The notes: a model not told the origin generated them from the sequence alone. A DNA stretch of 64,000 bases from an uncultured Clostridia bacterium (GCA_948891265.1 CAQUBD010000004.1:4223-68222), one strand, 5' to 3'. Shown: positions 23,169 to 57,372, numbered from the stretch's first letter. Program-made: numbers and translations.

Positions 23169-24241
23169 TATTCCACCACCTTAAAATTGTTCCATTCAAA
23201 TTGTACATCTATTTTATATTCTTTCATTACTTTAAATTTCATAGAGTAATATGCAAAATTATATAGAGTACTTGAAAATATACTTTTAAGAACACTATTT
23301 GTATCAAAATAATAATCACTAATATTTTTAAAATCTGAATAGTCATATGTATCATGCAATTTAAGATCTAAATTCCAATTTTCATTTTGTTTTTTTCCTA
23401 TCATCTTCAATTCTGCTTTATTGATTGCAAAGTATAAATCCTTATCACTAAAACTTACTGGAAAATCTTCATCTACATTACTATCAAACACAAATTTATT
23501 ATTACTTCCATATTTTTTTATTATTTTACTTATCGTTTTCTGAAATTGTTCTTGTTTCTTTATTTCTTCAACAACCTTTCCTTCTGTAAAAAATAATTCT
23601 TCTGGTTTTTCTTCTAACGAATGTTGTAAAAATTCTGCTGCTATTTTAAAATTTGCGTATCTTCCTCCAACTTCAATTACTGTTTGCCAAAATGCATATT
23701 GCATTTCTTTAAACTTATTCTTTTCATACTGATTTTTATTTCTATACATATTGAATATATAACTAAAACTTGTAATTAATAATTTTAGTTTTTCATCATC
23801 TTCTTCATAATTACTATTTTCTAATTTAGAAAGATTATTCTCAAATTTTCTTTCCTTTTTATATAAATCGTAGGCTTCTTTTAGTTTCATTTTTCTTGTT
23901 GTTATCATTTCTTCAAATTTTTCTACTTGATTAATATTATCAATATCTGTATTTATCTGTTCTTTTAATTTATCAAAATTCCCATAATGTAATTTGTCTA
24001 AATATTGATATGTTAAATACCTATCAGCTAACCAAATTTTTTGTTCTTTATTAACTCCTGAAATATTTGTTTTATTCATAATGTTTCTATATAAAAATTG
24101 TTCCTTATTTTTTCCTCTAGCTGGTTTCTTCATATCTAAAAATTTGAATATATTATTAATACAACCATTCTCAAATTGGCTTTTAGATTTTTTCATATCT
24201 CTTTCACATAACATACATTCATGCATATTCATCGCCTCCAA
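23168..24241 (-). CDS. hypothetical 357-aa protein
   Basis: ORF only; translationally coupled to the downstream gene. Confidence 0.4.
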   Translation of the reverse strand: MEAMNMHECMLCERDMKKSKSQFENGCINNIFKFLDMKKPARGKNKEQFLYRNIMNKTNISGVNKEQKIWLADRYLTYQYLDKLHYGNFDKLKEQINTDIDNINQVEKFEEMITTRKMKLKEAYDLYKKERKFENNLSKLENSNYEEDDEKLKLLITSFSYIFNMYRNKNQYEKNKFKEMQYAFWQTVIEVGGRYANFKIAAEFLQHSLEEKPEELFFTEGKVVEEIKKQEQFQKTISKIIKKYGSNNKFVFDSNVDEDFPVSFSDKDLYFAINKAELKMIGKKQNENWNLDLKLHDTYDYSDFKNISDYYFDTNSVLKSIFSSTLYNFAYYSMKFKVMKEYKIDVQFEWNNFKVVE

Positions 24242-24290
24242 TCTTACTACTATTTTACCATATTTTCCTATTTCAGCAATATTTGATATT

Positions 24291-25120
24291 TTATTTGTCT
24301 AACTGTCTTATTTCTTTTGCATTTTTATTAGAAATTACTTTTTTTCCTGTTTCTTTTTCCAACTGTTCTCTAGCAAGTTTAGCAATGTTGCCACCTTTTA
24401 TAACTGATTGTTCTGCACCTTTGATTCCTTTTTCATTCGTACTTTTAGATATTTCTGTAGAAGATGTTTCTGCTAACATATTTAAAACTAATTCCATATT
24501 AGTCATGTTATCACGTAGATTCTCTTTTTTCAGTCCTTTCAAATTTTTATATTCTTTTACAGAATATCCACTCCAAACCTCAGTCAGCATATTTGTTAAT
24601 ATCGCAAAATCTTTATTTTTACTAACACCTACTCTTTTTAGTTCATCTGTAAATTCTTTTCTTACATCAATTGTTTTTAATCTTTGGTTTATCCATTCTT
24701 CTGAATATCCTTTTTTTCTATAAGTATCTAATGCTCTATTTATTGTAATTTCTGGATCATAAGCTTCATCTATTCTTTCTTTTCCAACTTGTGCCAGCCA
24801 TAGTTTAAATGGTTCTGCTTTTCTTGATGGAATTGATTGTACTAATCTCAAAATTTGTTCTGTATTCATTACATCTGTATCTCTTAATTTTCCATCATAT
24901 GCTTTCATTTTCAACTGGTTAGTATTACTAACCAGTTCACTTCCTTCTTGAATTAACTTGTTTTTTAACCATTTCCAATAATTTCTCGATTTTTGATAAT
25001 CATTATCAGTAAGAATTCCAACCACATCTACTACTGAAAAGTACCAATTTTCTTCATCTTCATTCCATGCCACCCTAATATTTTTATCTTCAAATAATTT
25101 AATATATTATTTTGTTCCAT
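24291..25120 (-). pseudogene. Bro-N/DinD-like (phage antirepressor-type) protein, 5' end out of frame at an A-run
   Basis: ..NWYFSVVDVVGILTD.. Bro-N-like domain. The ATG with GAGGT RBS at 25120 reads MEQNNIL in the +1 neighbour frame. One extra A in TTAAATTA (25098-25100) would give MEQNNILKLFEDKNIRVAWNEDE.. Confidence 0.5.
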
Positions 25121-25955: not shown

Positions 25956-26729
25956 CTATTTATATAATCTTTTTATATGTTCAATAGCATTTTTTTCTAG
26001 TCTAGAAACTTGTGCTTGTGATATTCCGATTTCATTGGCAACTTCCATTTGAGTCCTTCCATCAAAAAATCTTTTATTAATTATCATTTTTTCTTTGTCA
26101 TTTAATTTTGTCATTATTTGCATTATTGTCATATTTTCAGTCCAGATTTCATCTGTATTCTTACTATCTCTTACTTGATCCATTATATATATACTTTCTG
26201 CTCCGTCATTATATACTGGTTCTTGAAGTGATACTGGGTCTTGAATCGCATCAAAACTGAAAGCTATACTTTCTCTTTCTACTCCTAATTCTTTTGCTAT
26301 TATATCAATAGTTGGCTCTTTTCCATTTTCTTTTGTATACTTTTCTTTAAATTGCATAGCTTTATATGCTAAATCTCGTACTGATCTACTAACTCTTATA
26401 CTATTATTATCTCTTAAATATCTTTTTACTTCCCCTATTATCATTGGCACTGCATATGTTGAAAATTGAACATTTTGACTCAAGTCAAAATTGTCTATTG
26501 CTTTTATTAATCCTACACAACCTACTTGAAATAAGTCATCAGCATTTTCTCCTCTTCCATAAAATCTCTGAATAACACTTAATACTAATCTTAAATTTCC
26601 ATTTATAAATGTTTGTCTTGCTTCTTCATCTCCTTGTTTTATTTTCACAAATAATTCTTCTTTTTCTTCTCTTGTAAGTAAAGGTAACTTTGATGTGTTT
26701 ACTCCACATATCTCAACTTTGTTTAACAA
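25956..26729 (-). CDS. sigG: RNA polymerase sporulation sigma factor SigG
   Basis: NKVEICGVNTSKLPLL.., NGNLRLVLSVIQRF, FSTYAVPMIIGE, EIGISQAQVSRLEK closely follow SigG; position after sigE. Confidence 0.9.
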   Translation of the reverse strand: MLNKVEICGVNTSKLPLLTREEKEELFVKIKQGDEEARQTFINGNLRLVLSVIQRFYGRGENADDLFQVGCVGLIKAIDNFDLSQNVQFSTYAVPMIIGEVKRYLRDNNSIRVSRSVRDLAYKAMQFKEKYTKENGKEPTIDIIAKELGVERESIAFSFDAIQDPVSLQEPVYNDGAESIYIMDQVRDSKNTDEIWTENMTIMQIMTKLNDKEKMIINKRFFDGRTQMEVANEIGISQAQVSRLEKNAIEHIKRLYK

Positions 26730-27983: not shown

Positions 27984-28731
27984 TTATCCTGTCTTACTCA
28001 TAATTTCTTTTTTCATCTTATTTATAATCTTTTTTTCTAATCTAGATATATAACTTTGTGATATTCCGAAGTTCATCTGCAACTTCCTTTTGGGTTTTTT
28101 CTTTTCCAGTTATAAAACCAAACCTCATTTCCATTATATTTTTTTCTCTATCATTTAGCTTAAGAATTGAAGCTCTTAATAATTTTTTATCAACTTCATC
28201 TTCTAAATTTCTTGAAGTAATGTCAGGGTCTGTTCCTAATATATCTGATAATAGTAATTCATTTCCATCGCAATCTTTATTTAACGGTTCGTCTATTGAA
28301 ATTTCTCCCTTTATTTTATTATTTTTTCTTAAATACATAAGTATTTCATTTTCAATACATCTTGAAGCATATGTTGCAAGTTTGATATTTTTATCAGCAT
28401 TAAAAGTATTAACTCCTTTCATTAAGCCTATTGTACCTATAGAAATTAAATCTTCTATTCCTATACCTGTATTTTCAAATTTTTTTGCTATATATACAAC
28501 AAGTCTCAAATTTCTTTCAACAAGAATTTGTCTTGTTTTCAAGTTATCTTCTTCTGATAATTTTTTTATTAGTTCTTCCTCTTCCTTTGTTTCTAAAGGT
28601 GGCGGAAGTGTTTGGCTTCCTGCTATGTAAAATATCGGTAAATATTCTACTTCATTATCATCATTTATGTACTTTGCACACACACTTGTTATGTTATCGA
28701 TCCCATTCTTTAATAATTCAATAATATTCAT
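27984..28731 (-). CDS. sigE: pro-sigma-E sporulation sigma factor, 248 aa if the in-frame CGG at 28066-28068 is bypassed by +1
   Basis: ..[12 protein letters not shown].., [51 protein letters not shown]. The zero frame ends ..[14 protein letters not shown]. Skipping the C of CTT-CGG-AAT gives [33 protein letters not shown], the conserved region 4.2. Confidence 0.85.
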
Positions 28732-28766: not shown

Positions 28767-29663
28767 CTAATATAATTCCATTCCTATTAAAGCATTATAT
28801 TCTCCTCGTTTTGTTAGAGATTTATTATATATTCCTATTATTGCATTATCTTTCTTTTCTATTTGTTCATTTATTATTTCTATACTTTGTGGTTTTATTC
28901 CTATTAGCATACCATTTTGTTTACCTAATGATGAAAATGGTATCATTTTTAATTTAGAAATATATTCTTCTTTTATATGTTCTGGTATTTTTTCAAAATC
29001 ACCTCCTAATATAGCTTCAGTGTTATTTAATATCTCTTTTGGAACTAAATCATACAACGCTACCTTTTCTACTACTATTACAGGATTTCCTGTAATAGGT
29101 TCTTTAAGCATATTTCCTGTATCGACCATTGCTGTTAAATCTTTTTCTTTTCCGTCTAATTTTATTTTTATCTTACATATCATATCTTTCTTAGTTATTT
29201 TACTTTTGGCTAATTTAAAAGCTATAATTAATATGATTGTTCCTATTATTGCACCAATAAATATAACTTTTAATACATATGTTCCCACATACATGCCATT
29301 TTTTATAATTATATTTTGTGGTTTTAATACATAAATTAAATATGTTGCAACTCCCCCAAATGTAAATGTTGTTAAATAAAATAATACTAATTCTTTACAC
29401 ATTTTCTTTATATCTTGTGGATTAAATGCTATATATACAATAATTATTGACAAAATTAATTTTATTATTGAATTTGCATATATATCCAACTTTGATATAT
29501 ATTGAATTGCTACATATATTGCACCTATAAGACTTGAAATAAAAATTTTCAGATAATATATTTTTACTTTTGAAATTATTCCAGTTGCATATAGTATTAT
29601 ATAATTCATTATTAAATTTTCTATAATTATAATATCTAAATAAATTGTTATTTTAATCACCAC
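28767..29663 (-). CDS. spoIIGA: sigma-E processing aspartic peptidase SpoIIGA
   Basis: Five N-terminal TM helices and the DTGN active-site motif (AMVDTGNMLKEP); upstream of sigE; GTG start. Confidence 0.9.
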   Translation of the reverse strand: MVIKITIYLDIIIIENLIMNYIILYATGIISKVKIYYLKIFISSLIGAIYVAIQYISKLDIYANSIIKLILSIIIVYIAFNPQDIKKMCKELVLFYLTTFTFGGVATYLIYVLKPQNIIIKNGMYVGTYVLKVIFIGAIIGTIILIIAFKLAKSKITKKDMICKIKIKLDGKEKDLTAMVDTGNMLKEPITGNPVIVVEKVALYDLVPKEILNNTEAILGGDFEKIPEHIKEEYISKLKMIPFSSLGKQNGMLIGIKPQSIEIINEQIEKKDNAIIGIYNKSLTKRGEYNALIGMELY

Positions 29664-35596: not shown

Positions 35597-36424
35597 ATTT
35601 TAAAACTATCTAAAATAACACAACTCTAAAACTGTATGTAATATCTATCTAGCAAATCTCTTGTTTTACTACTATCTAAAATAACGCAACTATAAAACTG
35701 ATTAGCACTTGCTTTTATAAAAATACTAGTTTTATTACTATCTAAAATAACACAATTCTAAAACATTGATAATACTACTAAACCAATTGGAATTGTTTTA
35801 CTACTATCTAAAATGACACAATTCTAAAACCTTAATATTTTTTTGATATTTGATATATTAGTTTTACTACTATCTAAAATAACACAATTCTAAAACAGTG
35901 GCGGAAGCAATGGGGATATTTATATAGTTTTACTACTATCTAAAATAACACAATTCTAAAACTTTGGATTTAATTTTCTAAATGCAAGTATTGTTTTACT
36001 ACTATCTAAAATAACACAATTCTAAAACATACAGCAATTGCTAATTGGGAATCTGGATGTTTTACTACTATCTAAAATAACACAATTCTAAAACAACATT
36101 CAAGCGTTTAACACAAGAAATATAGTTTTACTACTATCTAAAATAACACAATTCTAAAACTAACCGTATTTGATACCACTTTCTAATGTTGTTTTACTAC
36201 TATCTAAAATAACACAATTCTAAAACGGTTCGATAATAAACTCATCAAAAATAATAGTTTTACTACTATCTAAAATAACACAATTCTAAAACTATTTTCT
36301 TTCCTTTCTATCTATTATTTTGGTTTTACTACTATCTAAAATAACACAATTCTAAAACACTACATTAAATTCAAATATTTTATTCTTTGTTTTACTACTA
36401 TCTAAAATAACACAATTCTAAAAC
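35597..36424 (-). CRISPR. type II-A CRISPR array: 13 repeats of 36 nt, 12 spacers of 30 nt; transcribed on the minus strand from the csn2-proximal leader
   Basis: Repeat (minus strand) GTTTTAGAATTGTGTTATTTTAGATAGTAGTAAAAC. All 12 spacers counted as exactly 30 nt. The four repeats furthest from csn2 (35597, 35663, 35729, 35795) carry 1-4 mismatches, marking the old end. Confidence 0.97.
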
Positions 36425-36485
36425 CTCAAATTTGCTTTAGATTTTTTCGGTCAATGACTCCGTCATGTTACTTTAGACTTACACT

Positions 36486-37166
36486 TTAAATTATTTCATC
36501 ATTAAACATCTCATCTACGCTAAAAACACACTCATATTTTAGTTTACTTGTGCACTCTCTTTCAATAACCAACAATTTTACATTATTATACAATGAATAT
36601 TTATATAATTCAACCAATTCTTCATCTGACAAATACATTTTCAAATTTGGCACAACTAAAATCTGTGAAATACTCAATACAGACAGTAAATCTATTAATA
36701 TTTCTATCCTTTCTAAAATATTTGTATAATTCGACTTATCAATCCTTAAATCAAACAATTTCAACACTTCTGGTATACTAATATCACTTTTCATAACAAA
36801 CTCAAAAGGCAACTCATTTATCTCTTGTATTAAATAATTTCTTAATTTAAAAACCATTTCATATATATCTAGTTCTTGTGTATTCTTAATACTTCTATTT
36901 ATTAATTCATATATTTTATTTAATATCTTTTTATTATTATAATCTATATTAAATAAATCAAATACTAAATACATTTCTTTTTCTATTTTCAATTCATCTT
37001 CATTTTCATCTAATAAAAATATCTCATTATTTTCAATTCCGTTAATTTCTTGGTTTAATATATCTATAATATGTGTAAAACATTTTGCGTCTTTAATTTC
37101 TAATACATTAATATTTTTATCACCAAAAATAATTTCATTTTCAAATCCATTTATTCTTAATTTCAT
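36486..37166 (-). CDS. csn2: CRISPR-associated protein Csn2 (short type)
   Basis: 226 aa, position after cas2 and before the array; MKLRINGFENEIIF.. typical Csn2 start. Confidence 0.85.
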   Translation of the reverse strand: MKLRINGFENEIIFGDKNINVLEIKDAKCFTHIIDILNQEINGIENNEIFLLDENEDELKIEKEMYLVFDLFNIDYNNKKILNKIYELINRSIKNTQELDIYEMVFKLRNYLIQEINELPFEFVMKSDISIPEVLKLFDLRIDKSNYTNILERIEILIDLLSVLSISQILVVPNLKMYLSDEELVELYKYSLYNNVKLLVIERECTSKLKYECVFSVDEMFNDEII

Positions 37167-37483
37167 AGTACAATCAACCTTTCAGTGTTATCTAAAACAT
37201 CTTGTGTTTTATCTCCTACAACATATTCTATACCACTATATTGTTTTTCTGTTATTACAAGCATCTGAACAATTCCTTTTGGTGGTTTGTTTTTGTATAT
37301 CTTTTCTCTTATTGATTTTACTATTGAATTATTAAGTGCTAATTTTGAATATACAGATTCTTGTAACATTATGAACCCTTCATTTATTAAGTCTTTTCTA
37401 AATCTTGCATATATCTTTCTATCTTTATTTGTTTGTGTTGGTAAATCAAAAAATACTATAACTCTCATATATCTAAAACTCAT
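37163..37483 (-). CDS. cas2: CRISPR-associated endoribonuclease Cas2
   Basis: MSFRYMRVIVFFDLP.. ferredoxin-fold Cas2 start; overlaps cas1 and csn2. Confidence 0.9.
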   Translation of the reverse strand: MSFRYMRVIVFFDLPTQTNKDRKIYARFRKDLINEGFIMLQESVYSKLALNNSIVKSIREKIYKNKPPKGIVQMLVITEKQYSGIEYVVGDKTQDVLDNTERLIVL

Positions 37484-38339
37484 AATTTAATATTTTACTT
37501 TCTTCATTATTTTCTAAAAATTTGAATACGCTAGCCATAAATATAGGGACTGCATTTGATATATATTGTTCTTTATTTTCAATATTAACTATTTTATTAC
37601 ATACATCTATTAATTTATATTTATATGATTTATCAAATGCAAATTCTCTATTTTTATATACTATTTCATCAACCAATGGTCTAAAAATTTCCATCAAATC
37701 ACACGATAAATTAAATTGATTAAACTCACTTTTGTGATTTATTCCTAATGGTGTTATATATCCTTTACTTACTACTTCTCTGTTCATTACTGATAACAAT
37801 ATTGAGTAACCATAATCTAATGCTATATTAGTATTGTCATCTACTCCTCTAATAAAATCTTGTCCAAATAATAAGTTGAAATATACTTTTGCTGCATGAC
37901 CTTCTCTATTAGTTTTGTCTCCATTTTCTACTTGTTCTTCATATCCTAATAATTTTTCATATCCTTCTATTTCTAGTTTTTTTAATAACATTGCTTGATT
38001 ATGTATTTTGTATTTTACTATTTCTTTCCATACTCTGTCCTTTTTGTCTTGTTCCCATTTTATTTGATTTAATATTTTTTTACTTGTGTTAAACGAACCA
38101 TAATAGGGCATTATTTCGCAGGATGGATTATGTTTTTCATCACAAAATATTATTTTTATTTTCTTATTTGCTAATTCATTTATTAAATATGATGTTATTG
38201 ATATCATACAATTTTCTACTATCACCATATTTATTTCTGATAAATGTATCATTTTCAATTCTTCACTTCTAATTATTAAGTAGTCATTTTTATAACTTAA
38301 TTTACAATTTTTGCTAACTATTACAGTTCTCCATCCCAT
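37473..38339 (-). CDS. cas1: CRISPR-associated endonuclease Cas1 (type II)
   Basis: 288 aa, ..NALDYGYSILLS.., ..GINHKSEFNQFNLSCDLMEIFRP.. Confidence 0.92.
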   Translation of the reverse strand: MGWRTVIVSKNCKLSYKNDYLIIRSEELKMIHLSEINMVIVENCMISITSYLINELANKKIKIIFCDEKHNPSCEIMPYYGSFNTSKKILNQIKWEQDKKDRVWKEIVKYKIHNQAMLLKKLEIEGYEKLLGYEEQVENGDKTNREGHAAKVYFNLLFGQDFIRGVDDNTNIALDYGYSILLSVMNREVVSKGYITPLGINHKSEFNQFNLSCDLMEIFRPLVDEIVYKNREFAFDKSYKYKLIDVCNKIVNIENKEQYISNAVPIFMASVFKFLENNEESKILNYEF

Positions 38340-41300
38340 TTATTTTACCCTTTCTTTCGTACATTCCTGTTACTGATTTATCTATAAATGTCATTTTCAA
38401 TAATTTATCTGTTTTAAAGCTTTGTCCTGATTTTCTTCCTTCTCTATCAGTTAATCCCATTGCTTTTAAATTTCCTTGTCCTGTTGCCATTAAATCTATC
38501 ATCCCATTTATTGTAGACTTTTTATCCTTTTCTTCTAATTTTTTGAACTTGTTTATATTTTCTTTTAGTTTAATATATATACTATTAAATATTTTGTATT
38601 CTTTTTGAATCTTTTCTAATAGATATTCATACATATATACATATTCTGATTGCAATTTTTCTTTTTGTTCATCTGTTATTTTTTTGTCTTCTGAATTCAT
38701 TATATATACTAATTCTTGTATTTTAGGAGATACTATTAATTCTTTTGATGCTCTTATTTCTTTATCACTACATAATCTCATATTTTCATTGTTTTCGTCT
38801 AAATATTCTTGATTAATAAGTATTTTATTTCTAACTATTTTAAATTCACTGTATTCTTTGTCTTTTAAGCTTGTCTCTTTTATATATGTTTCTAAGTCTG
38901 TCTTTTTATTTTTTATATCATATGAAATTTTAATTGGTATTCCTATTAATTCATACTCTTTTTGTCCCTTTTTATTTATATATTCGTAAATAGCTAAGTA
39001 AGCTTTCTTTTCTCCTGAATATCCTCCATATTTCTCTACTTTTCTATTGTTTTTTAATGCTATGAGTTTACTTTTATTGCTATTAGGGCTGTATATTGTT
39101 TGTTCATAAAATTGTCCTGTTTGTTCTTCTAGCATTCTACTAATAAAACAATCTTTATAATTTATACACTTTTTTACTTGTTCTATATTAACACGATTTT
39201 TAATAAATCCCATTATCATTCCATGTTTTTCCTTTGGATCTCTATTGTCTTTCATGTATTTTTTTACATATTCTCCATATTTGAATTCTGCTTTATCTCC
39301 ATGCCATTCATTATTTAGAATATTTCCTATAACAGATATGATGTATGCATCTTGTGCATGATGATAATTGTTTATATTTCTGTTTTTATATATTTTATAT
39401 TTATCTCTAAAGTCATGTGTTAATTCTGCTCTTAAAGAATATATGTCTGTATCTTTATATTCATTTTTCAATAAATTTGTAACATATTTTGTTATTTGCC
39501 TTGTTTCTACTAGTTGTCTTTTTACAAATTTTTCTCTGTCATCATCTGTTTCAAACATTTTTCTTCTTATTAATTTATAATATTTGCTTTGTGTCATCAT
39601 GTCATTATGTAATAAGCTTTTCCACCATTCCATTTGTTTATTAATGATGTCATCTTTTAATAATAAACTATCAGTTTTTCTTTGATTTTCTTCTCTTAAA
39701 ACAAGTGCTTTATTATCTAAACTATCATCTTTTATATATGATCTTGGAATTATATGATCAACTTCATATAAACTTAAATTTTCTATATCTAATTTTTTTC
39801 CACTATATAGACATTTTCCATTTTGCAAGCAATATAAATACATTTTTTCAGTTAATGTTTTATCATTTTGATGTTTCTTCAACTCTTTATATACATTTTT
39901 ATCATAATTTTTTAAATCTTTAATTTGATTTTCTATTTCGTCATATTTTAATAATAATTGTTTTATTCTTTTATCAGTTATCTTTTTCTCATAATCTTCT
40001 GCTCTTGCAAATTCTATATATATGTTTTGGGGTTGTTTTTTCATTATTTTTTCTATTTCTCTTACAATGCAAATAGATTGCCAAATTGCTCTTTTATTTG
40101 CTGGTGATGTTGGTATTTCTTCTATATCTTTATATTGAATTTTTTCTGATGTTTTTGGCATTAAGTCTTCTAGTTTTTTATCAAATCCAAAACTTTTCTC
40201 ATTTATTATTTGCATGAAATTAAAATTTGTTTTTTCAAGTTTGTCCATGATGGTATCTCCATCATTCGCTTTTAAACCTGCTATTAGCTTTTTAGATAGT
40301 CTTGACCATCCTGTGTATTTAAGTTTGCATATTTTGTTTATTTGTTCATCTGTTAGCTCTTTATATTTTTGTTTTAGTTTTCTTTTTAAGATTTTCTTTT
40401 CTTCAAATATTGTTACCCAATATATTATTTCTTCACATTGTTCTATATTGCTTTCATCAACTTTTCCTAAGATATTTTTCATATCTATGTATGATGCCAT
40501 ATTTGAATTAAAATTTGTTTGGTCTGTTAGTCCTGTTATTGTTTTTATTTCATACCCATTCAATTTGTAATAGTTTCTTAGTGTTTTTTCTGTTACTTTT
40601 TTAGTGTTTTTGAATATTTTTTCTACAATATCTTTTTTCTCGTTTTTTCCTAATCTGTGATTATCTATTTTTATATTATTTAGTTCATTTAAAACACAAT
40701 ATTTTGAATATAATATTGATTGTTTTGGCATTACATCTTCATTTATTAAGTATGTACATTTATTAGTCATTCTTCTTATAAATTGTTCTGCTGTTGCATC
40801 TATATCTATAATATTTTCAAAATTCCATGGTCTTATTTTTTCTTCACTTTTTCTTATAACCCATGAATATTTTTTATCTTTATTATTTGCTAGTGGTCCT
40901 ACATAATAAGGTATTCTAAATTCGAATAGTCTTAGGATTTTGTCTTTATTTTCTTGTAATGTTTTATAATATTTTGATTGATTTTCTACTATTTTTTCTA
41001 ATTCTTTTTTATGTAATTGGTTTGGTATAGCTCCATTGTCAGTTACATTTATTTTTGATAAGAAATTGTGTTCTTCAATTTGTCTTAATATTATATCTTT
41101 ATATTCACATTGATCTGGTAGAGTATTAATTTTCTTTTTTAATTGATCAAAGAATTCTTTTGGCTCGCATTTTTTATATTTTTTCCCTGAACTTTTTCCA
41201 TTATATGCAACATAATTGCATTTTCCTTCTTTTCGGAACATTTCTGTATATTCATCTTTGAAATATTTTTTATATACTTTTTTAAGAATTTCTAAATCAT

Positions 41301-42250
41301 TTTGGTATTTTTCATATTTATCAATCATTGCTTCTGATATATATGTTTTTCCTTTTAATATGTCTTGCAATATGAACCAACTATACAAGCTACTTATACA
41401 ATCATATATATTTGCATCTTCTTGTAGTTCTATTTTTATTTCTTCTTCATTTTCTATTTCTGTTGCAAAACTTATTTTTGATTTTTCAATATTTGTTCCA
41501 AATATTTTATTTATGTCTGTTGAGTATCCTAAAATTCCATTAACAACATTTGTTATTATTGTTCTATCTATTTTGTCAAAGTCAAATAATGATATAATAT
41601 TGTCTTTTTTATTTGCTCTAGAAGTATTTTTTTGTTTTAAAATATTTAATATTTCTTCTTTATTTGTTTTTAAAGTAATCTCATATCTATCTTCTAAAAA
41701 TTCAACTATTTCTTCTAGTTTTTCAGTTATTTCGTTAGAATTTTCTGAAAAATCTCCTTCATATAAGAAATTACCCCTATATTTTATTATATGGTGCATT
41801 GCTAAATAGACTAATCTTATATCAACTTTTTCAGTTGTATTAATTAGATATTTTCTTAAATGGTATATTGTTTTAAATTTTTGATAATAGTCTATATCTG
41901 TTTCTTTTTCATCAGAAAATAAATTGTGTTTTTTTCCTAAAATTTGTTTTGAAATATTTTTGTCTTCATAGTCTAATGATGTTTCTCTTAGCATAGGAAA
42001 GAAGTTTGGATATTGTTTTTCTACATCTTCTATTATTAGACTTTTTAACATGTTTATTCTTTCTCTTCTTCTGTCTATCCTTCTTCTGGTTCCTCTAAAT
42101 ATTCTCCTTTTTTCTGCTGTTTCTGCTTCTTTGAATATTCTTGATCCCCACATGTTTCTTTTGCCTTTTTTTAATATTTCATTATTGTTATTTGTTACAC
42201 ACCATCCTACTGATGCTGTTCCTATGTCTAATCCGAATATTGTATTCCAT
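38314..42250 (-). CDS. cas9: Cas9, ~1311 aa if the in-frame CGG at codon 6 (42233-42235) is bypassed by +1
   Basis: The track ORF (1279 aa) lacks RuvC-I. The ATG at 42250 reads MEYNI, then ATT-CGG-ATT. Skipping the C gives MEYNI-G-LDIGTASVGWCVTNNNNEILKKGKRNMWGSRIF.., joining the long ORF. HNH motif YEVDHIIPRS..DNKALV present. Confidence 0.9.
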
Positions 42251-42640: not shown

Positions 42641-43552
42641 TTATTTTTCTATTCTTATATTTGCCCCTAATTTTCTTAATTTGTCATCTAAATTTTCATA
42701 TCCCCTTAATATATACTCAATATTATCAACCTTTGTTTTCCCCTTAGCAATGAGTCCAGCCAATATTAATGCAGCTCCTCCTCTTAAATCTGTTGCCTTA
42801 ACTTCTGTTCCATATAATTTCCTCACACCACGTATTATTGCACTTTTTCCCTCTATAGTAATTTTTGCTCCCATTCTATTTAATTCTTGTGTATACTTAT
42901 ATCTGTTTTCAAAAATATTTTCTACTATTATAGATGTTCCTTTTGCTGTTGTTAGCATTGATGCTATTACTGATTGCATATCTGTTGGAAATCCAGGATA
43001 TGGCATTGTTTTTATATCTAAAGCTTTTAATTTTTTTGGAGCTATTAGATTTATTTTATTTTTCTCTATATTTATTTTACAATCGGCTTCCTCTAATTTA
43101 TTTATTATTGGAGTTATATGTGTACTATTTACATTTTCTAATAAAATATTTCCTTTATTTGCTGCTGCAAAACATAAAAAAGATCCTGCTTCTATTCTGT
43201 CTGGCATTATATTATAACTTACATCTTTTAATTTTTTTACTCCTTCTATCTGTATTTTATCTGTTCCTGCTCCAATTATTTTAGCCCCCATTCTGTTTAA
43301 CATATCTTGTAAATCTGTTATTTCTGGTTCCCTTGCTGCATTTGTTATTATTGTTGTGCCTTCTGCTAACACACTTGCTAATATTATGTTTTCTGTTGCT
43401 CCTACACTTGGAAAATCTAAATCTATTTTTTCTCCTTTTATTTTCTCTGTAGAACATTCTATTCTTCCATGATTTTGATTTACTTCTATTCCTAATCTTT
43501 CAAAGCTTTTTAGATGTAAATCTATTGGTCTTGAGCCAATATCACACCCTCC
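42641..43552 (-). pseudogene. murA: murA 3' segment (residues ~115-418 of UDP-N-acetylglucosamine 1-carboxyvinyltransferase), separated from its 5' segment by an inserted element
   Basis: Open frame ..GGCDIGSRPIDLHLKSFERLGIEVNQ..SVLAEGTTIITNAAREPEI..DLRGGAALILAGL.. without its own start. Confidence 0.9.
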
Positions 43553-45185
43553 TGTTTGTGATAGTTTGTGGGTACATGAATTTCAAGTGCAATGCTAGCC
43601 CCCCATTTTCGTACAGCTCTTGATACATTTCATTGTTTAAGTTATATTCTTGTTTGATATCTTGAGTTATTTCGTGTTGGTCAAATACTACGATTTTATC
43701 AAATAATCTTGATAATTCTTCTTTTGTTAAACCATTATTTTTTATATCATCTATTGCTTTAAATATCAAATCTTCTTTGTCTTCTAGCTTATTTAGAGTA
43801 TTAAATTTGCTTTCCGTTTCTTGCAATTTTTCTTTTTCCTTTTTTATTTTCTTTTCTAATTCCTGCTTTTTATCTTTGTATATGAACTCTGGAATTAAGT
43901 CATTTAACTTATCTTCATAAACTTGTTTAAATTGTTTTTCCAATTTTTCTAAAACTTGTTTTGATTTATTCACTTGTTTTTCTAGTATTACTTTGTTAGT
44001 ACTAATTGATTTTACATTATCCATAACAAAGTTTTTAAATTCTGGGTTACTTACTAAATTGTCTATGTAAGCATTTACGATCTGGTCTAGGTATTCAATT
44101 CGTATTCTGTGTGGTTTACACCCATAATCTGGCCTTATCTCTTTTATGCTTCCTTCGTTACTGTATTTTTTACACAAATAACTATCTGGTCTTTTCCTTG
44201 TTCCAGTACTTCCTTTTCTTTTATACATGGCTGTTCCACATCTTCCACAATATAAAAGTCCTGAATACAAGTTATTTTCTACATCTACAAATTTAAAGCC
44301 ATTATTATATTGATCACTTTCTTTTTTTCTTTTCTTCCTAATTTTTTGTACTTTTTCAAATAACTCGTTTTCAATAATTGGTTCGTGATGATTTTCTATT
44401 ATAGTCCATTCTTCTTGTGGCTTTACCATTGTTTTTTTAGATTTAAAACTTATCTTTTCTGTTCGCCCACCTACATAATCGCCAATATATCTTCTATCGT
44501 CTAAAATTCTCACAATGTGTTGTGCTTTCCAATTTGCTGTTTGTTTTGCATTTATAAAATTTCTACTTTGAGATGGTGTTAGTATTCCTTTTTTATTTAA
44601 GTGTGTTGCTATCTTTTGATATCCCCAGCTTTTAGAATATAACTCAAAAATTTCTTTTACTACTAGTGCTGTTTCCTCATTAATAACTAGATTTTTTCCA
44701 TCTTTGTTATATCCATAAATTGCTTTTACTAATAAGTCACCTTCTTCTATCTTATGTCTTAAATTTCTTCTTATATTTTTGCTATCATCTCTTGCTCTTC
44801 TTTCATTAAACCATGCATATAAACCAAACATTTCCTCATTATATTGCTCATCTTCAAATATGATTTCTACACCCTGTTCTTCTAGATATTCTACAAATTC
44901 TAATGCTTCTCTCTGATTTCTTCCAAGTCTTGCAGAGTTCTTAAAAACAATTACATCTATTTGCTTTTTTTGAGCTCTTTCTCTTATATCATCAAATCTA
45001 CTAAAGTCAGTTCCACTTTTGTCATCGTCCATTATAATATCTACTATATTTGTATATCCATGACTTTTACAGTATTTTACTAGCAAATCTCTTTGTGTTT
45101 CTATTCTCTCATAGTTTTCGCCATAGTCATCTCTACTTTCTCTGCAATAAATTACTACTCTTTTTTCCTCATTAGACTTTTTCAT
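43542..45185 (-). CDS. large serine recombinase (547 aa)
   Basis: ..VVIYCRESRDD.. catalytic Ser region, recombinase domain, Cys-rich zinc ribbon (CGRCG..C..C), C-terminal coiled coil. The last ~4 codons and the stop lie in the junction core. Confidence 0.9.
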   Translation of the reverse strand: MKKSNEEKRVVIYCRESRDDYGENYERIETQRDLLVKYCKSHGYTNIVDIIMDDDKSGTDFSRFDDIRERAQKKQIDVIVFKNSARLGRNQREALEFVEYLEEQGVEIIFEDEQYNEEMFGLYAWFNERRARDDSKNIRRNLRHKIEEGDLLVKAIYGYNKDGKNLVINEETALVVKEIFELYSKSWGYQKIATHLNKKGILTPSQSRNFINAKQTANWKAQHIVRILDDRRYIGDYVGGRTEKISFKSKKTMVKPQEEWTIIENHHEPIIENELFEKVQKIRKKRKKESDQYNNGFKFVDVENNLYSGLLYCGRCGTAMYKRKGSTGTRKRPDSYLCKKYSNEGSIKEIRPDYGCKPHRIRIEYLDQIVNAYIDNLVSNPEFKNFVMDNVKSISTNKVILEKQVNKSKQVLEKLEKQFKQVYEDKLNDLIPEFIYKDKKQELEKKIKKEKEKLQETESKFNTLNKLEDKEDLIFKAIDDIKNNGLTKEELSRLFDKIVVFDQHEITQDIKQEYNLNNEMYQELYENGGLALHLKFMYPQTITNRRV

Positions 45186-45313
45186 AGATTACCTCCGCTT
45201 CATAATGTATCAATAACATTAGTTTTATATTATTGTCTTATTGTAGTTATTATATGTTAAAAGTTCTAAAATTTTAAGAATATTCTTGAAATTTTAGAAC
45301 TTTTTCTTTTAAA

Positions 45314-46141
45314 CTACTTTCTTTTTTTCCTATTATGTGCTATATTAAATATGCTAATAATTAATATAATTGAAATGCCTATCATTGCATATAACAAATT
45401 ATTATTTTCTATTATTTTACTTTCGTTTTCACTATTTTGTAGATCCTTCGTTTCTTCACTCCAAATCCCGAGTTTATTATTTTTTGCAGTTTCTTCACTT
45501 TCTTGTAACATTCCAGCATATTTATAATTATTCTGTAACATATAAGTTTCGGCTAATCCATTTTCAACTAATAAATTTTGTAATAATTCATCATCTATCC
45601 ATATCCAAGCTAAATATCTATCATATTTATCTTTTTCATCTGCTGAACTATCAAACTCCAATTCAATTTTAGTAGCATTTTTTAGTTTTTCTTTTGTAAA
45701 ATCACTTGCTTCTTTTCCCCATTCTTCTTCGCCAATTTCTGGATGTACAGTTTCTTTTGTATTTATTCCTAAAAATCTAACAGTTATTTGTGCTCCATTC
45801 ATTTTAAATTTTGCAGTATCTCCATCTACAGTTTCTACTAATTCTACTTCAATTCTATTTGCGCCTTCATCATAATCGTTTTCTATTTTATTAAAATTTT
45901 CATCATAATATACGGCTGGCATAACAATTACCCATTTTTTATTTTCTTCATCCCATTTTACTTGATGATAATGGATTACTCCATTTTCTTTGTGATAACC
46001 ATAATATTTTCCATTATATTCAGTTATATTTTTTGAATCTTTGTCTTTCCAACCTGTAATATTTCCACCATGTGCAAAACTCACATTGCTTACACATATT
46101 AACATCACTATACTTATTATTATATTTCTTACTTTTTTCAT
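45314..46141 (-). CDS. secreted/anchored thermonuclease (SNase-like)
   Basis: Signal peptide MKKVRNIIISIVMLICVSNVSFA, ..VDGDTAKF..VRFLGINTKE.. SNase motifs, C-terminal TM anchor. Confidence 0.75.
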   Translation of the reverse strand: MKKVRNIIISIVMLICVSNVSFAHGGNITGWKDKDSKNITEYNGKYYGYHKENGVIHYHQVKWDEENKKWVIVMPAVYYDENFNKIENDYDEGANRIEVELVETVDGDTAKFKMNGAQITVRFLGINTKETVHPEIGEEEWGKEASDFTKEKLKNATKIELEFDSSADEKDKYDRYLAWIWIDDELLQNLLVENGLAETYMLQNNYKYAGMLQESEETAKNNKLGIWSEETKDLQNSENESKIIENNNLLYAMIGISIILIISIFNIAHNRKKRK

Positions 46142-46291
46142 TATTATCACCAAACAAACGGACTAACAAATTCTAAAAAGCAAAGCTTTTAAGTATTTGT
46201 AACGTTCGCATAATTTATTTGTACGGAAATTGCACTCTTCGAGTTGCACTTTCCTACAACTAAAAAAATTATACCATAAGGAGGAATTATT

Positions 46292-46861
46292 TTGAACGAT
46301 TTTTTAAGCTTTTCATTAAATAGCTTAAATTTATTACATAATAAAATTCATGATAATATCAACGGCAGTTTAGTTGATAACTTTATTCATGAATTGAAAA
46401 GCTATTTAGAATTACAATCAAATGATAAAATATTAGAAAATTTACCTGATAGTACAAATCTGCATTTTGCAAAATTTGAGGGAAATTTCGCTGTTTGCTT
46501 TGATTACTCTTCTAAAACTATATATAATATTCCTAAATCCTACTTAAAAGGAACAACTCCCGAAGTTGGAGAAGCTATAAAAAAAGTTTCTTCAAAAGAT
46601 TTTCGTGTAGATACTACAGGAATTTCAGCAAATGCAAATGATATTGACAAACTTTTAAGTGAATGCAGTTATTCTACTCTTTCTTCAAAAATAAGTATAT
46701 TACCAGAATATTATAAGATTTCTGATATTAGTGTGGATTTTGCTGTTTGCAAGAATCTAACTACTAACAAGCCAGAAAATATCCCCATAGATGACATTCC
46801 CAAAGATGCCAAAAATGGCGATACTTTAGTTTATAAAAATGGTAAGTTTATTATAAAATAA
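46292..46861 (+). CDS. hypothetical 189-aa protein (TTG start after AAGGAGG)
   Basis: ORF plus strong RBS only. Confidence 0.4.
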   Translation: MNDFLSFSLNSLNLLHNKIHDNINGSLVDNFIHELKSYLELQSNDKILENLPDSTNLHFAKFEGNFAVCFDYSSKTIYNIPKSYLKGTTPEVGEAIKKVSSKDFRVDTTGISANANDIDKLLSECSYSTLSSKISILPEYYKISDISVDFAVCKNLTTNKPENIPIDDIPKDAKNGDTLVYKNGKFIIK

Positions 46862-46902
46862 TTACTTTGACTTTCAACACATTACAAATTGTAATGTGTT
46901 AG

Positions 46903-47898
46903 TTAATTATTTTTATTATTATCTTTTAACATTTTTACCATTCTATCAAAATCACTTTCTAATTGTTTCATTTCTCTATCTCTATATATTTCAAATTCTT
47001 TTTCTGCTTTTTCTATTGCTTCTTGATGAGATATTCTTCCTTTTCCTTCAAGAAGTTTTCTTTTATTTTGTACAATTTGATTGTCTAATTCATCTATCCA
47101 ATCATTCATTGTCATTGCTCGTTGTTCTAATGCTTGAAATTCTGCATAATCTAAAAATTGTGAAACCAGCAAACTCAATCTTTGTAATTCAATTTCTGAA
47201 AGATAGTTTTTAGCAATTTTCACATCATCAACTGTTACATAATCTCCTTTAAAATTAGTCATTTCCACAAAAGGCTTTTTATTGTCCACTCTATCATATA
47301 TCAATTCCGCTGCAGTATGTTCATGAACTGCGAAATGAAGTTTGTTTTGTACTGTTGCAAAAAATTTTTTAGTCAAATCAGAACGTGGATCATAATCTAT
47401 TGAAGTTGCATATATATCTGTAACTTGCTGATAAAAATTTCTTTCCGAAGAACGAATATCTCTAATTCTTTGTAATAATTCTCTGAAATATCTATTTCCA
47501 CCTTGTTTTAATCTTTCATCATCCATTGTAAAACCTTTTTGCATATATTCGTGTAATCTTTGAGTTGCCCATATTCTAAATCTTGTTGCAACTTGTGATT
47601 GTACTCTATATCCTAATGCAATTATCATATCTAAATTATAATGATCAATATTTCTCTTAACCTGCCTATTTCCTTCACTTTGAACTAATAAGAATTTCTT
47701 ATTAGTTGAATCATTAGTTAATTCACCATCTTTATAAATATGATTTATATGCATTGAAATATTTTCTTGTGTAGTTTTATATATTTCAGCAATTTAATTT
47801 TGTGTTAACCATATATCTTCATCATTAAATTTTACAGAAATTTTAGTAACACCATCTTCATCTTGATAAATTATTATATTATTTTCATTTTTTTGCAT
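46903..47898 (-). pseudogene. RhuM-family protein interrupted by an in-frame TAA (47794-47796)
   Basis: MQKNENNIIIYQDEDGVTKISVKFNDEDIWLTQN-TAA-IAEIYKTTQENISMHINHIYKDGEL.. is one frame (47796 and 47754 congruent mod 3). The stop sits where family members usually have Gln (CAA). Confidence 0.65.
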
Positions 47899-48574
47899 TT
47901 TTATTTCTCCATTCATTATAAAATATTCTTTTGTAATCATTTTGCAGGTGTTGGCAAAATGATAATTTTTATATAATGTATTCAACTGTTCGGATTTTCC
48001 GAACAACTGAATTTTCTTTAAATTTGTACTATTTCATTTAATATATTAGTTATATCATAAGCCCAAAAATATTTCAACACTTCTGCGAAATTTTGTTTTG
48101 TTTTTATCTGTATTTTTCTTTTATTCTATCAGAAATAATATCAGTGAATATCTGTTTATAATCCTCATCTTCGCCAACATTTGACTTAGGACATATAAAA
48201 ACTGCAAATGGTAATTTATCTTTTGCTTTTTTATTTATATTTGTGTCTTTATTGTTCCTTTTTTCCAGAGTATCCACCTACCTTTTCATTTTTAATTATA
48301 TTGTTATATTGTTTGTACTTATTACTAAAAACCTATAAAAAACTGTAAGTGGTAACTTAAATACTCATATAAGATTTGGTCTCATTCCTCCTTCAGAGAA
48401 TAGCCTCTTTACATCTTGTTAGCCAGACAGAAATTTCATTAAAAGAAAATAAATTTAAAGAATCGTCTGAATTCGTGCACCAATTTTACACATGTAAAAT
48501 TGTGTGAAATTTATTTATAGTATAGGAAAAATGAAACTTCTAGTCGTATTCACAACCAGAAGTTTCATTTTCAA

Positions 48575-48820
48575 TTACTGCTCATCACTGAGCTTTGAAG
48601 GCATTTTCACAACGCGTTTGGCATTTCCATCAACAATAATACGATGCATTTTCCAGCCGATTTCTTCAACGTGACTACGCATCTGGCTCCAAGCGGTATC
48701 GGAGATAGTTCTGTATTCATAATAGCCCAGACCTTTTTTGAGCAAATCTTGTCTCATCTTATCTGCTTCATTGACGTCAGGTGAAGAGTCATGCTTTACT
48801 ATCAAAATTCTTGTATCCAT
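48575..48820 (-). CDS. hypothetical 81-aa protein, conspicuously GC-richer than the rest of the window; candidate recombination directionality factor by position only
   Basis: ORF at the recombinase-distal end of the element, 30-50 nt from the junction core; followed by a hairpin terminator (~48530-48570). Confidence 0.35.
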   Translation of the reverse strand: MDTRILIVKHDSSPDVNEADKMRQDLLKKGLGYYEYRTISDTAWSQMRSHVEEIGWKMHRIIVDGNAKRVVKMPSKLSDEQ

Positions 48821-48867
48821 TCATTTATCTTAAACTTGTCCGATGTATCCACCAAATATCGCAATCC

Positions 48868-49208
48868 CCTGGATGCGTGAACATTGCTTTTTTATATTTT
48901 CCAACTAACGCTCCTGCTAATATTACAGATGAACGCATTTTATGCATCAATTCTGATGAAATTTCATATTTTGTTATATTTGATGTATCTATTATTACTT
49001 TTCCATTTTTCTTTTCTATTTTTGCACCTATTTCTTCTAAAATTTTAAACATTAATTGTGTATCTCTTATATTTGGTACATTATATAATGTACTTTTTCC
49101 AGCATTCAATATTGTTGCTGCAATTATTGGAAGTGAGGAATTCTTTGAGCCTGATATCTTTACTGTTCCTTCTAATCTATTTCCTCCTTCTATTATGTAC
49201 TTTAACAT
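48868..49208 (-). pseudogene. murA: murA 5' segment (residues 1-~114)
   Basis: MLKYIIEGGNRLEGTVKISGSKNSSLPIIAATIL..KKAMFTHPG, then reads into element DNA (DCDIWWIHRTSLR*); RBS before the ATG at 49208. Confidence 0.9.
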
Positions 49209-49278
49209 CTCTCTTCCACCTTTCACTTTTATTTTGCTATATATTATGTTTTCTTTACGTAAAAAGTGAATTCTTATT

Positions 49279-55893: not shown

Positions 55894-57372
55894 ATGGAAA
55901 ATTCAAATTTATATCAGGACATTGCAAAGAGAACTGATGGCGATATTTATGTAGGTGTTGTAGGTCCTGTACGTACTGGTAAATCGACTTTTATTAAAAA
56001 TTTTATGGATTTACTTGTTATTCCAAATATTGATAATGAATACAAAAAAGAAAGGGCAAAAGATGAGCTACCTCAGAGTGCTGGTGGTAGAACTATTATG
56101 ACAACAGAACCAAAATTCATCCCAAATGAAGCTATAGAAATCACTTTAGATAATAATCTAAAATTCAAAACTAGACTAGTAGATTGTGTTGGTTATTTAG
56201 TTTCGAATAGCATTGGTTATCTTGAAGATGACATGCCAAGAATGGTAAAAACACCTTGGTCAGATGAAGAAATCCCATTTGAAACTGCTGCTGAAATTGG
56301 TACAAAAAAAGTTATAGAAGAACATTCTACAATTGGAATTTTAGTTACTTCTGATGGAAGTATCACAGATATCCCAAGAGAAGATTATATACAAGCAGAA
56401 GAAAGAGTAGTTTCTGAATTAAAAGCATTAGATAAACCTTTTGTAATCTTACTAAATTCTGACAATCCTTATTCAGAATATACTCAAGAACTTGCCCAAA
56501 AGTTAACAGATAAATATAATAACACTGTTATCCCTATAAATTGTGCAAATCTTACTATAAATGATATAAATGATATCTTTTCAAAAATTTTATATGAATT
56601 TCCTGCTCAAAGAATTTCAATTAAATTTCCTCGTTGGATTGATGGATTAGATTTTAATCATCCTATAAAAAGTCAACTATTTAATGAAATTAAAGATGCA
56701 TTTACAGATATTCATGTTTTAAAAGATATTTCAAATTGTACTCAAAAAATAAGCCAAACTGAAATCATCTCAAGAACTACTATTACCAATATCGAACTCG
56801 GCTCTGGAAATGTTAAAGTACAAATTGATGTAAAAGAAGAATTGTTTTATAAAGTGTTATCTGAAATTACTGGTGTATGTGTTGAGAATGAAGGAGATCT
56901 ATTTGGTATTATTTCTGAGCTTTCTATTGCTAAAAAGAAATATGATAAAATTGCATATGCCTTAGAAGAAGTAAATGCCAAAGGCTATGGAATTGTTACT
57001 CCTTCAATTGATGAACTAGAATTAGATGAACCAGAAATGGTTAAACAAGGTTCTAGATTTGGTGTAAAACTAAAAGCAACTGCACCTAGTATACATATGA
57101 TAAAAACAAATGTAACTACTGAGGTCTCTCCAATTGTTGGTTCAGAAAAACAATCTGAGGAGTTAGTAAATTATCTACTTTCTGGATTTGAAAATGACCC
57201 TAAACAAATTTGGTCATCTAACATATTTGGAAAAAGCTTACATGAACTTGTAAATGAAGGCTTACAAACTAAGTTATCTAAAATGCCGGAAGAAGCTCAA
57301 CTTAAACTTCAGGAGACACTTGAACGTATTGTTAACGAAGGTTCTGGTGGATTAATTTGCATTATATTATAA
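55894..57372 (+). CDS. spoIVA: stage IV sporulation protein A
   Basis: ..IYVGVVGPVRTGKSTFIK.. Walker A and full-length 492-aa SpoIVA pattern. Confidence 0.95.
   Translation: MENSNLYQDIAKRTDGDIYVGVVGPVRTGKSTFIKNFMDLLVIPNIDNEYKKERAKDELPQSAGGRTIMTTEPKFIPNEAIEITLDNNLKFKTRLVDCVGYLVSNSIGYLEDDMPRMVKTPWSDEEIPFETAAEIGTKKVIEEHSTIGILVTSDGSITDIPREDYIQAEERVVSELKALDKPFVILLNSDNPYSEYTQELAQKLTDKYNNTVIPINCANLTINDINDIFSKILYEFPAQRISIKFPRWIDGLDFNHPIKSQLFNEIKDAFTDIHVLKDISNCTQKISQTEIISRTTITNIELGSGNVKVQIDVKEELFYKVLSEITGVCVENEGDLFGIISELSIAKKKYDKIAYALEEVNAKGYGIVTPSIDELELDEPEMVKQGSRFGVKLKATAPSIHMIKTNVTTEVSPIVGSEKQSEELVNYLLSGFENDPKQIWSSNIFGKSLHELVNEGLQTKLSKMPEEAQLKLQETLERIVNEGSGGLICIIL

Follow-up and report, generated by a model that had tools for sequence, protein, structure and literature searches.

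A serine-recombinase element that recurrently splits murA at its catalytic-loop codons in uncultured gut Clostridia

In a 64,000-nucleotide stretch of DNA from an uncultured Clostridia bacterium (GCA_948891265.1, CAQUBD010000004.1:4223-68222; the whole stretch is called the window below, and positions are counted from its first letter), the gene murA is divided into two parts by an element of 5,317 bp that carries a large serine recombinase and occupies positions 43551-48867, between the murA halves. The break falls in the Gly114 codon, one residue ahead of the catalytic Cys115. The element of the window is likely to be a reduced member of a widespread family found in uncultured gut Clostridia of low G+C, whose site-specific integrative and mostly mobilizable elements target the codons of the MurA loop. 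murA is a new and unusual attachment site within the known class of site-specific serine-recombinase integrative elements, and with it the list of such sites comes to include the active-site codons of the fosfomycin target, which initiates peptidoglycan synthesis. An earlier reading of the same sequence, hereafter the first-pass annotation, was not aware of murA as a described target; in agreement with this, full-text literature searches yielded nothing linking murA with a serine recombinase, an integrative and mobilizable element (IME), an integrative and conjugative element, a prophage or an intervening element.

The 5' part of murA (48868-49208, minus strand) extends from Met1 to Gly113/114 and was matched by tblastn to residues 1-118, while the 3' part (42641-43552, minus strand) begins with GGCDIGSRPIDLH, extends from Gly114/Cys115 to the stop in an open frame and was matched to residues 110-416. 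Both were recognized by the Pfam EPSP_synthase profile, the 5' open reading frame (ORF; 48825-49226, minus strand) at profile positions 2-117, after which it turns into unrelated sequence, and the 3' segment at positions 113-417. The 5' ORF runs into the element as ..KKAMFTHPG-DCDIWWIHRTSLR and stops at 48825, giving a 133-aa N-terminal MurA stump that ends 19 codons inside the element. Neither half of the window copy contains a stop or a frameshift, and when joined at their common Gly codon they give a 416-aa protein which scored 538.6 bits against the murA equivalog TIGR01072 (cutoff 392.7) and aligned with solved MurA structures from end to end. Pfam, TIGR01072 and the junctions thereby confirm the core of the first-pass annotation, i.e. 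that murA is split at its P-G-G-C loop by a serine-recombinase element of ~5.3 kb and that the joined halves constitute a normal MurA.

The exact junctions were obtained by comparing the window with 78 relatives whose murA is intact and with 20 further attL sites, which placed the crossover dinucleotide GG at 48869-48868 and 43552-43551. At attL (48868-48869, minus strand) the GG forms positions 1-2 of the Gly114 codon, with the host-variable third base of a Pro codon (CCA/CCT in 20 attL sites) directly 5' and an invariant arm directly 3' of it. At attR (43551-43552, minus strand) the arm CCACAAACTATCACAAACAGG is invariant in ~66 loci, and host-variable bases begin right past the GG. The attP-derived arm at attL (GGATTGCGATATTTGGTGGATACATCGGACAAGTTTAAGATAAAT; 48825-48867, minus strand), near-invariant across 21 attL junctions in different hosts, forms an imperfect inverted repeat with the other arm around the GG. 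Since the element arms are almost invariant over ~66 attR and 21 attL junctions from many hosts, and the bases beside the GG differ by host (CCA or CCT to the left; A, T or G to the right), strand exchange is placed at the GG of the Gly114 codon. The bounds given in the first-pass annotation fell within ~15 nt of these crossovers.

The empty site, as read from the 78 related genomes with an uninterrupted murA, is ..TCATATCCAGGAGGNTGTGATATTGG... In the window, attL consists of TTCACGCATCCAGG and, across the crossover, GGATTGCGATATTTGGTGGATAC, and attR of CCACAAACTATCACAAACAGG and AGGGTGTGATATTGGCTC. The predicted attB of this strain is GCAATGTTCACGCATCCAGGAGGGTGTGATATTGGCTCAAGACC and the predicted attP CCACAAACTATCACAAACAGGGGATTGCGATATTTGGTGGATAC; the rebuilt attP, CCACAAACTATCACAA-ACAGGGGA-TTGCGATATTTGGTGG, has an imperfect dyad symmetry centred on the GG, as is characteristic of serine-integrase attachment (att) sites. 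Judging from the junction comparison, precise recombination at the GG core would rebuild an intact murA, as had been proposed at the outset. The observation that the element end mimics the target (HPG-DCDIW versus GGCDIG) also proved to be real, and is a matter of att half-site similarity, because attP and attB half-sites have TATC(A/G)CAA-type motifs in common. In two related elements the 'Cys' position of the arm reads TAC (Tyr) in place of TGC (Cys), which points to a constraint on DNA and not on protein. For this recombinase, whose site is conserved throughout a clade of uncultured Clostridia, naturally validated attB, attP, attL and attR sequences are now available and could aid engineering there.

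These features are consistent with a mechanism in which the recombinase would join the attP of the element to a chromosomal attB of ~40-50 bp, the stretch that encodes the MurA catalytic loop (..S/T-Y/H-P-G-G-C-D/E-I-G..), by strand exchange at the GG of the Gly114 codon. Integration would leave the 133-aa stump and a promoterless, start-less 3' part, this murA copy would be off during residence of the element, and precise recombinase-mediated excision at the GG would restore it. The recombinase and a small protein, here named F0, make up the conserved core, with the remaining genes as exchangeable cargo. No in-frame start is found near Cys115 in the 3' part, where the first ORF initiated by ATG, GTG or TTG begins 60 codons downstream, and we infer that MurA function is lost in the integrated state, neither fragment making MurA. 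Conceivably, the two fragments could instead assemble into an active enzyme and render the insertion phenotypically silent, given that the break lies in a surface loop, that the tail of the N-fragment retains a Cys in a G-D-C-D-I context and that enzymes of the EPSP-synthase fold tolerate fragment complementation. The lack of a start before or soon after Cys115, together with the Tyr codon of the two related elements, which marks this Cys as a DNA-level att feature, makes such a split enzyme extremely unlikely.

The recombinase gene (547 aa; 43542-45185, minus strand) has the same orientation as murA and lies at the very end of the element. Its Resolvase (PF00239, residues 10-150), Recombinase (PF07508, residues 170-286) and Zn_ribbon_recom (PF13408, residues 306-374) domains all scored above cutoff, residues 388-466 are coiled-coil-like with a weak match to PspA_IM30, and the protein matched a PHROG integrase with E=2.7e-90. 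The ORF ends in host murA DNA: ..ACA AAC AGG is followed across the junction by AGG GTG TGA, the last two codons and the TGA stop being host-derived. This stop (43542-43552) comes from the host codons for Cys115-Asp116, TGT GAT being read as TGA. Where the host has TGC at Cys115, the recombinase ORF continues for 5-15 codons, and in hosts with TGC or another next codon the recombinase (P0003, P0081, P0084, P0097) acquires a tail of 5-84 residues, read from murA out of frame. After excision, the ORF is predicted to be ~22 codons longer. Only two solved structures matched the recombinase, a 'putative conjugative transposon recombinase' and the N-terminal domain of TnpX, the latter match being weak (E=2e-5) and limited to the catalytic domain. 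The best NCBIfam match was CcrB, whose score of 113 bits is far below the cutoff of 900; a staphylococcal cassette chromosome-type cassette was rejected on this score and because the target is murA rather than the 3' end of rlmH.

The arrangement recurs widely. Recombinases 71-93% identical to that of the window are encoded on ~70 independent contigs from genomes and metagenomes, and the same murA break is found beside the recombinase wherever sequence is available; such recurrence in ~70 independent assemblies rules out chance and assembly artefact. In the genome scan, two species representatives, L076 from mouse gut and L079 from human gut, had murA matches only from residue 110 onwards, with a ~90% identical recombinase directly upstream of the murA remainder, and six contigs with recombinases 86% and 71% identical showed the recombinase followed by a 5'-truncated murA. 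The metagenome scan gave 78 loci, in which murA residues 110-416 come next wherever the DNA continues past the recombinase, and immediately so except in two metagenome loci with 2-2.5 kb of extra cargo in between. The layout of recombinase and murA break is shared by ~60 metagenome contigs, and five more loci, reached via F0, have it as well. The protein search returned more than 120 recombinase clusters at 71-93% identity, some of which hold 400-1,800 member sequences. Gut metagenomes of humans and animals are rich in the family, single 90%-identity recombinase clusters containing from hundreds to ~1,800 sequences.

Nineteen elements were complete, i.e. had both junctions on one contig. Their lengths range from 3.7 to 11.3 kb; a further, more divergent element, L084, measures 2.6 kb. 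By all-against-all comparison, the recombinase and F0 were the only universal genes, the cargo being modular. A Mob_Pre relaxase occurs in 9 of the 19 complete elements, and MobA/VirD2 relaxases occur in others (L105 and L081). Further cargo includes an HTH_36/DnaD-like protein, resembling helix-turn-helix (HTH) replication initiators, DUF6076, Bro-N or RhuM proteins, a nuclease/DUF3006 pair, pairs of ABC transporter genes, a defence-like AAA_21 ATPase and a radical-SAM enzyme. No mating-pore genes (VirB4/VirD4) were seen in the family elements. As the first-pass annotation had stated, the element of the window has no phage structural genes: the PHROG search found neither structural nor lysis genes in it, only integrase and nuclease matches, and no relative of the family was present in a collection of 2.9 million viral contigs. 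Phage origin was rejected on these two grounds.

That the family moves horizontally is evident from a comparison of 3-kb flanks between species representatives with an empty site and occupied contigs. Such an empty-site comparison in relatives had been proposed beforehand in the first-pass annotation, and with 78 genomes having an intact murA it revealed both empty and occupied alleles in at least four species. Flanks of the empty and occupied alleles, the latter on 16 contigs, are 98-100% identical: L077 is the empty counterpart of ten occupied contigs, L048 (Clostridium sp. CAG:567) of four, L015 of L151 and L074 of L145. Recombinase and host divergence are only weakly correlated (Spearman 0.22). 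L095 and L136 have recombinase genes that are 100% identical over 1,630 nt and murA 3' parts that are 76% identical, while L081 and L147 have 99.8% identical murA and only 82% identical recombinases; identical recombinases thus occupy the same site in divergent hosts. Empty and occupied sites within one species, together with this uncoupled divergence, argue for repeated recent site-specific acquisition and not for a vertically kept developmental element. A strain-variable site and cross-species spread are also features of IMEs. Since contigs of up to 1.69 Mb (CAXVQW010063528.1) span both junctions, the integrated state predominates in those populations.

Among described systems, site-specific serine-recombinase IMEs integrate inside genes and disrupt them, known internal targets being rumA, a maff2-like gene, an SNF2 helicase gene and traG (PMC5704250). 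The murA family resembles the Firmicutes members of this group (IME_SpnAP200_rumA, Tn6104, IMESp2907; PMC5704250) in its single large serine recombinase, integration inside a coding gene, 2-bp core, small size, relaxase without mating-pore genes, replisome-organizer-like HTH protein and variable cargo. It differs from them in that it targets catalytic-loop codons, that its hosts are uncultured gut Clostridia, that its recombinase abuts the element end and has its stop in host DNA, and that F0 and a structured leader accompany it. The Tn4451/Tn4453 group of Clostridium perfringens and Clostridioides difficile (with TnpX and TnpZ) is alike in its clostridial host, size of ~6 kb, large serine recombinase, Mob_Pre (MobV) relaxase and 2-bp core, but Tn4451 has low target specificity and a GA core, as opposed to the single murA site and GG core found here. 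Membership in this group was rejected in view of the weak match to the TnpX N-terminus, the GG crossover and the single target.

The first-pass annotation had also likened the layout to the intervening elements of spore formers. The host does belong to an endospore-forming lineage, as the window has complete spoIVA (55894-57372, plus strand), spoIIGA (28767-29663, minus strand), sigE-like (28042-28731, minus strand) and sigG-like (25956-26729, minus strand) genes. In relatives, the broken murA is followed on its 3' side by ftsQ, DUF881, DUF881, DUF1290, ftsA, ftsZ, spoIIGA and sigE, and the window keeps this order except for a type II-A CRISPR-Cas locus set between murA and ftsQ. The affected murA copy heads an ftsQ-ftsA-ftsZ-spoIIGA-sigE-sigG cluster. 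A developmental element comparable to skin or SP-beta would be part of the vertical germ line and be excised in the mother cell only, the restored murA serving the spore cortex. In favour of such a role are the position of spoIIGA, sigE and sigG directly downstream in the same cluster, with spoIVA nearby, and the intact murA halves in most carriers (59/71), and the combination of a large serine recombinase with a ~57-aa partner recalls SprA/SprB. We nevertheless regard it as very unlikely, considering the four species with both empty and occupied sites, the identical recombinases in divergent hosts and divergent ones in identical hosts, the many family members with relaxases, the housekeeping rather than mother-cell nature of murA, and a sigma-A-like promoter ahead of the recombinase module, where no sigma-E/sigma-K motif was evident on inspection by eye only.

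The documented sporulation elements (skin/SpoIVCA in sigK, SP-beta/SprA-SprB in spsM, and those in spoVFB, spoVR and gerE; PMC4191935) share with the murA family a gene-splitting recombinase, a spore-former lineage, the rebuilding of the gene by precise excision and possibly a small partner protein. They are, in contrast, phage-derived, vertically kept and directed at mother-cell genes (PMC4191935), where the murA family has a housekeeping target, varies between strains, carries relaxases and moves across species. A sporulation intervening element was therefore rejected, as the murA target is not restricted to the mother cell, occupancy of the site varies within species and the element spreads by horizontal transfer. 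Of the likeness drawn in the first-pass annotation, the lineage with its sporulation genes held, but the model was not supported as the best one. A link to sporulation, weakened by the type of target, the strain variability and the sigma-A-like promoters, may still exist in view of the sporulation genes of the host.

The small protein F0 (57 aa, ..KDKLPFAVFICPKSN..DYKQIFTDIISDRIKEKY; 48104-48277, minus strand), present in 19/19 complete elements, measures 54-69 aa across the family and is situated directly upstream of the recombinase in the minimal 2.6-kb element L084. It has 534 homologues, a basic N-terminus and no Pfam or PHROG family, and its AlphaFold model, built with 37 homologues, is of low confidence (predicted local distance difference test 64, predicted template modelling score 0.27). 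Position and universality make F0 a candidate recombination directionality factor or regulator; because TnpX-type recombinases need no directionality factor (PMC5704250), that function is put forward as a hypothesis only.

Upstream of F0 lies a conserved structured leader of ~100-120 nt (48313-48436, minus strand), found in 34 distinct copies, i.e. in 33 besides that of the window (e.g. L091, ~8580-8700). RNAalifold gave 4-5 helices, two of which show compensatory changes; pairing holds for 95% of cells, compared with ~45% when the partners are slid, and double changes numbered 31 versus 11.7 in shuffles. The sense strand is rich in G-U pairs. No Rfam family matched the leader or any other part of the element, and the leader may be a new cis-regulatory RNA carried by the family. 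Most elements have a TTGAAT-17-TATAAT promoter followed by the leader and then F0; in the window copy, a leader promoter is not recognisable. On the 3' side of F0 comes a conserved ACAAAATTTCG motif and then a TTGAAA-17-TGnTATAAT promoter ahead of the Bro-N/RhuM/recombinase genes, which looks sigma-A-like; by eye, the only inspection made, no convincing sigma-E/sigma-K motifs were seen before the recombinase module. A LexA-box-like motif after F0 was dropped, as its GAAC half-site is not conserved.

The split gene itself is well preserved across the family. The 3' parts are open to the natural stop in 59 of 71 cases and the 5' parts are intact in all 20, which could reflect either an element that turns over often or selection for a gene that is restored from time to time. 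Six of the 12 interrupted 3' parts are on contigs of 1.4-7x coverage and resemble errors. Decay of the split murA was rejected, since the other six share one extra C in alleles under purifying selection. This extra C (..GCA GAA C GGA..), 66 codons 3' of the element site, was found in L089, L093, L102, L126, L123 and L107, contigs that represent at least three diverged lineages of one host clade (e.g. L093, ~11830, and L102, ~11830). It moves murA to the +1 frame, both frames being otherwise open to the natural stop, and the alleles have a ratio of nonsynonymous to synonymous substitution rates (dN/dS) of 0.08-0.19, with dS up to ~0.9. At the site, the zero-frame codon is CGG, used 0.3 times per 1000 codons in these contigs, as against 35 per 1000 for the +1 codon GGA. 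The extra C seems to mark a conserved +1 frameshift site, under selection in murA and independent of the element.

Preservation of this kind is of interest for the notion of a reversible switch, in which excision and reintegration, governed by growth phase or stress, would switch murA, and with it read-through into the division genes, on and off in a fraction of the cells. The comK prophage of Listeria and SpyCIM1 in mutL of Streptococcus pyogenes are examples of such active lysogeny. The murA element is alike in the proposed reversible interruption of a host gene, but has neither phage genes nor relatives among viral contigs. A prophage of this type was rejected, the element lacking structural and lysis PHROGs and any relative in the 2.9 million viral contigs. 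The comK-type model raised as one resemblance in the first-pass annotation did not hold up as the best description of a family that has relaxases, varies between strains and moves horizontally, and active lysogeny persists only as the functional idea of a switch, with low probability. For such a switch speak the scar-less excision expected at the GG core, the structured leader upstream of the core module with F0 first, which suggests regulated expression, and purifying selection on the split halves of long-diverged carriers (dN/dS 0.08-0.19). Yet mobile-element turnover explains the intact halves equally well, no locus has an attP junction, long recombinase variants are read-throughs into murA, and the window copy is without a leader promoter, so that we hold the switch to be rather improbable.

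Returning to the integrative, mostly mobilizable family as the preferred reading, if neither fragment makes MurA and the integrated form is in the majority, the cells presumably depend on MurA activity from elsewhere, for which a second murA paralogue is the best candidate. A second murA is usual in low-G+C Gram-positives, and is reportedly documented for them. Should carriers prove to lack such a paralogue, an essential step of cell-wall synthesis would be under the control of the element; in that case, or if excision were regulated, interest in it would be high. A bolder proposal holds that the interrupted murA is the only or principal MurA of the host and that integration and excision of the element turn the first committed step of peptidoglycan synthesis on and off at the level of the population, with leader and F0 as the control input; we give it a similarly small chance as the switch above. 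If true, it might tie murA switching to dormancy, sporulation or tolerance to cell-wall antibiotics.

Several observations weigh against the reading of the window as a copy of a mobile family in hosts with a spare MurA. A tblastn search with the rebuilt MurA detected no second murA in the 64-kb window or in 169 fetched loci, and the best structural matches of the rebuilt protein are chains labelled 'transferase 1' (3r38, 3sg1). In Listeria and Bacillus the essential paralogue is of this 'transferase 1' type, which is not easily squared with a dispensable copy. No attP junction, as expected from an excised circle, occurred in any locus examined, and no empty site was seen within the same sample as an occupied contig. 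Recombinase variants of 550-631 aa had been candidates for attP read-throughs, but were rejected as such, being read-throughs into murA in hosts with a TGC Cys codon or a different next codon. Activity of the recombinase is presumed from population patterns, such as identical recombinases at one site in divergent hosts. Finally, neither Pfam nor the all-against-all protein comparison found a relaxase in the window copy, which is termed mobilizable by virtue of its relatives. By the definition of an IME (own relaxase or oriT, no type IV secretion genes), the family qualifies and the window copy does not; the latter is a reduced, relaxase-less derivative of the family.

The window copy could accordingly be viewed as an immobile remnant, with murA a pseudogene tolerated thanks to a paralogue. 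In addition to the missing relaxase, a nonsense codon in its RhuM gene, the lack of a recognisable leader promoter and a unique ORF fragment at one end would fit with this. It nonetheless has a full-length three-domain recombinase, an intact F0, open murA halves and two att arms identical to the family consensus, and we consider the remnant hypothesis unlikely. Intact recombinase, F0 and att arms instead suggest that the copy of the family in the window can probably still excise, and that its transfer would take place only with help.

The remaining contents of the window copy agree with the inventory in the first-pass annotation, Pfam recovering the recombinase at the extreme end, an SNase-like nuclease, a RhuM pseudogene and further ORFs. 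The nuclease (45314-46153, minus strand) is a Staphylococcal-nuclease-like protein (Pfam SNase, E=2e-23; PHROG nuclease) that has a signal or anchor sequence at its N-terminus and a membrane segment near the other end. It is paired with a 189-aa ORF (46292-46861, plus strand) whose C-terminus is DUF3006-like by Pfam, and the same gene pair also occurs in L076, L104, L106, L137 and L150. The RhuM-family gene (46903-48006, minus strand; Pfam Virulence_RhuM, E=1e-105) has one in-frame stop at 47794-47796, apart from which it is 91-93% identical to intact RhuM genes of 331-360 aa in related elements. An 81-aa ORF (48575-48820, minus strand), situated in a stretch of higher G+C, is found only in the window copy, sharing no protein family among the 19 complete elements. 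Its sole Pfam match, REase_MTES_1575, is weak, the PHROG search gave no match, and it is probably a cargo remnant.

Two other loci have related genes outside of the element. In L168 (18-1619), a DUF3006/SNase pair lies directly upstream of the murA 5' part, which suggests either exchange of this module between chromosome and elements or the remnant of a second element. In L084 (2623-5708), two tandem large serine recombinase genes are found just upstream of the murA 5' part, with amidase and M23 peptidase genes nearby; the tandem recombinases point to a different element beside the murA site.

Elsewhere in the window, the type II-A locus of clustered regularly interspaced short palindromic repeats (CRISPR) comprises cas9, cas1, the cas2 region and csn2 (35597-42153, minus strand), and the array between murA and ftsQ has 13 repeats of 36 nt and 12 spacers of 30 nt. 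None of the 12 spacers of this neighbouring array matches any murA element at up to 4 mismatches. Just past sigG (23168-25073, minus strand), a Bro-N domain protein is accompanied by a 357-aa ORF without an assigned family, and this pair may be part of another mobile element in the window.

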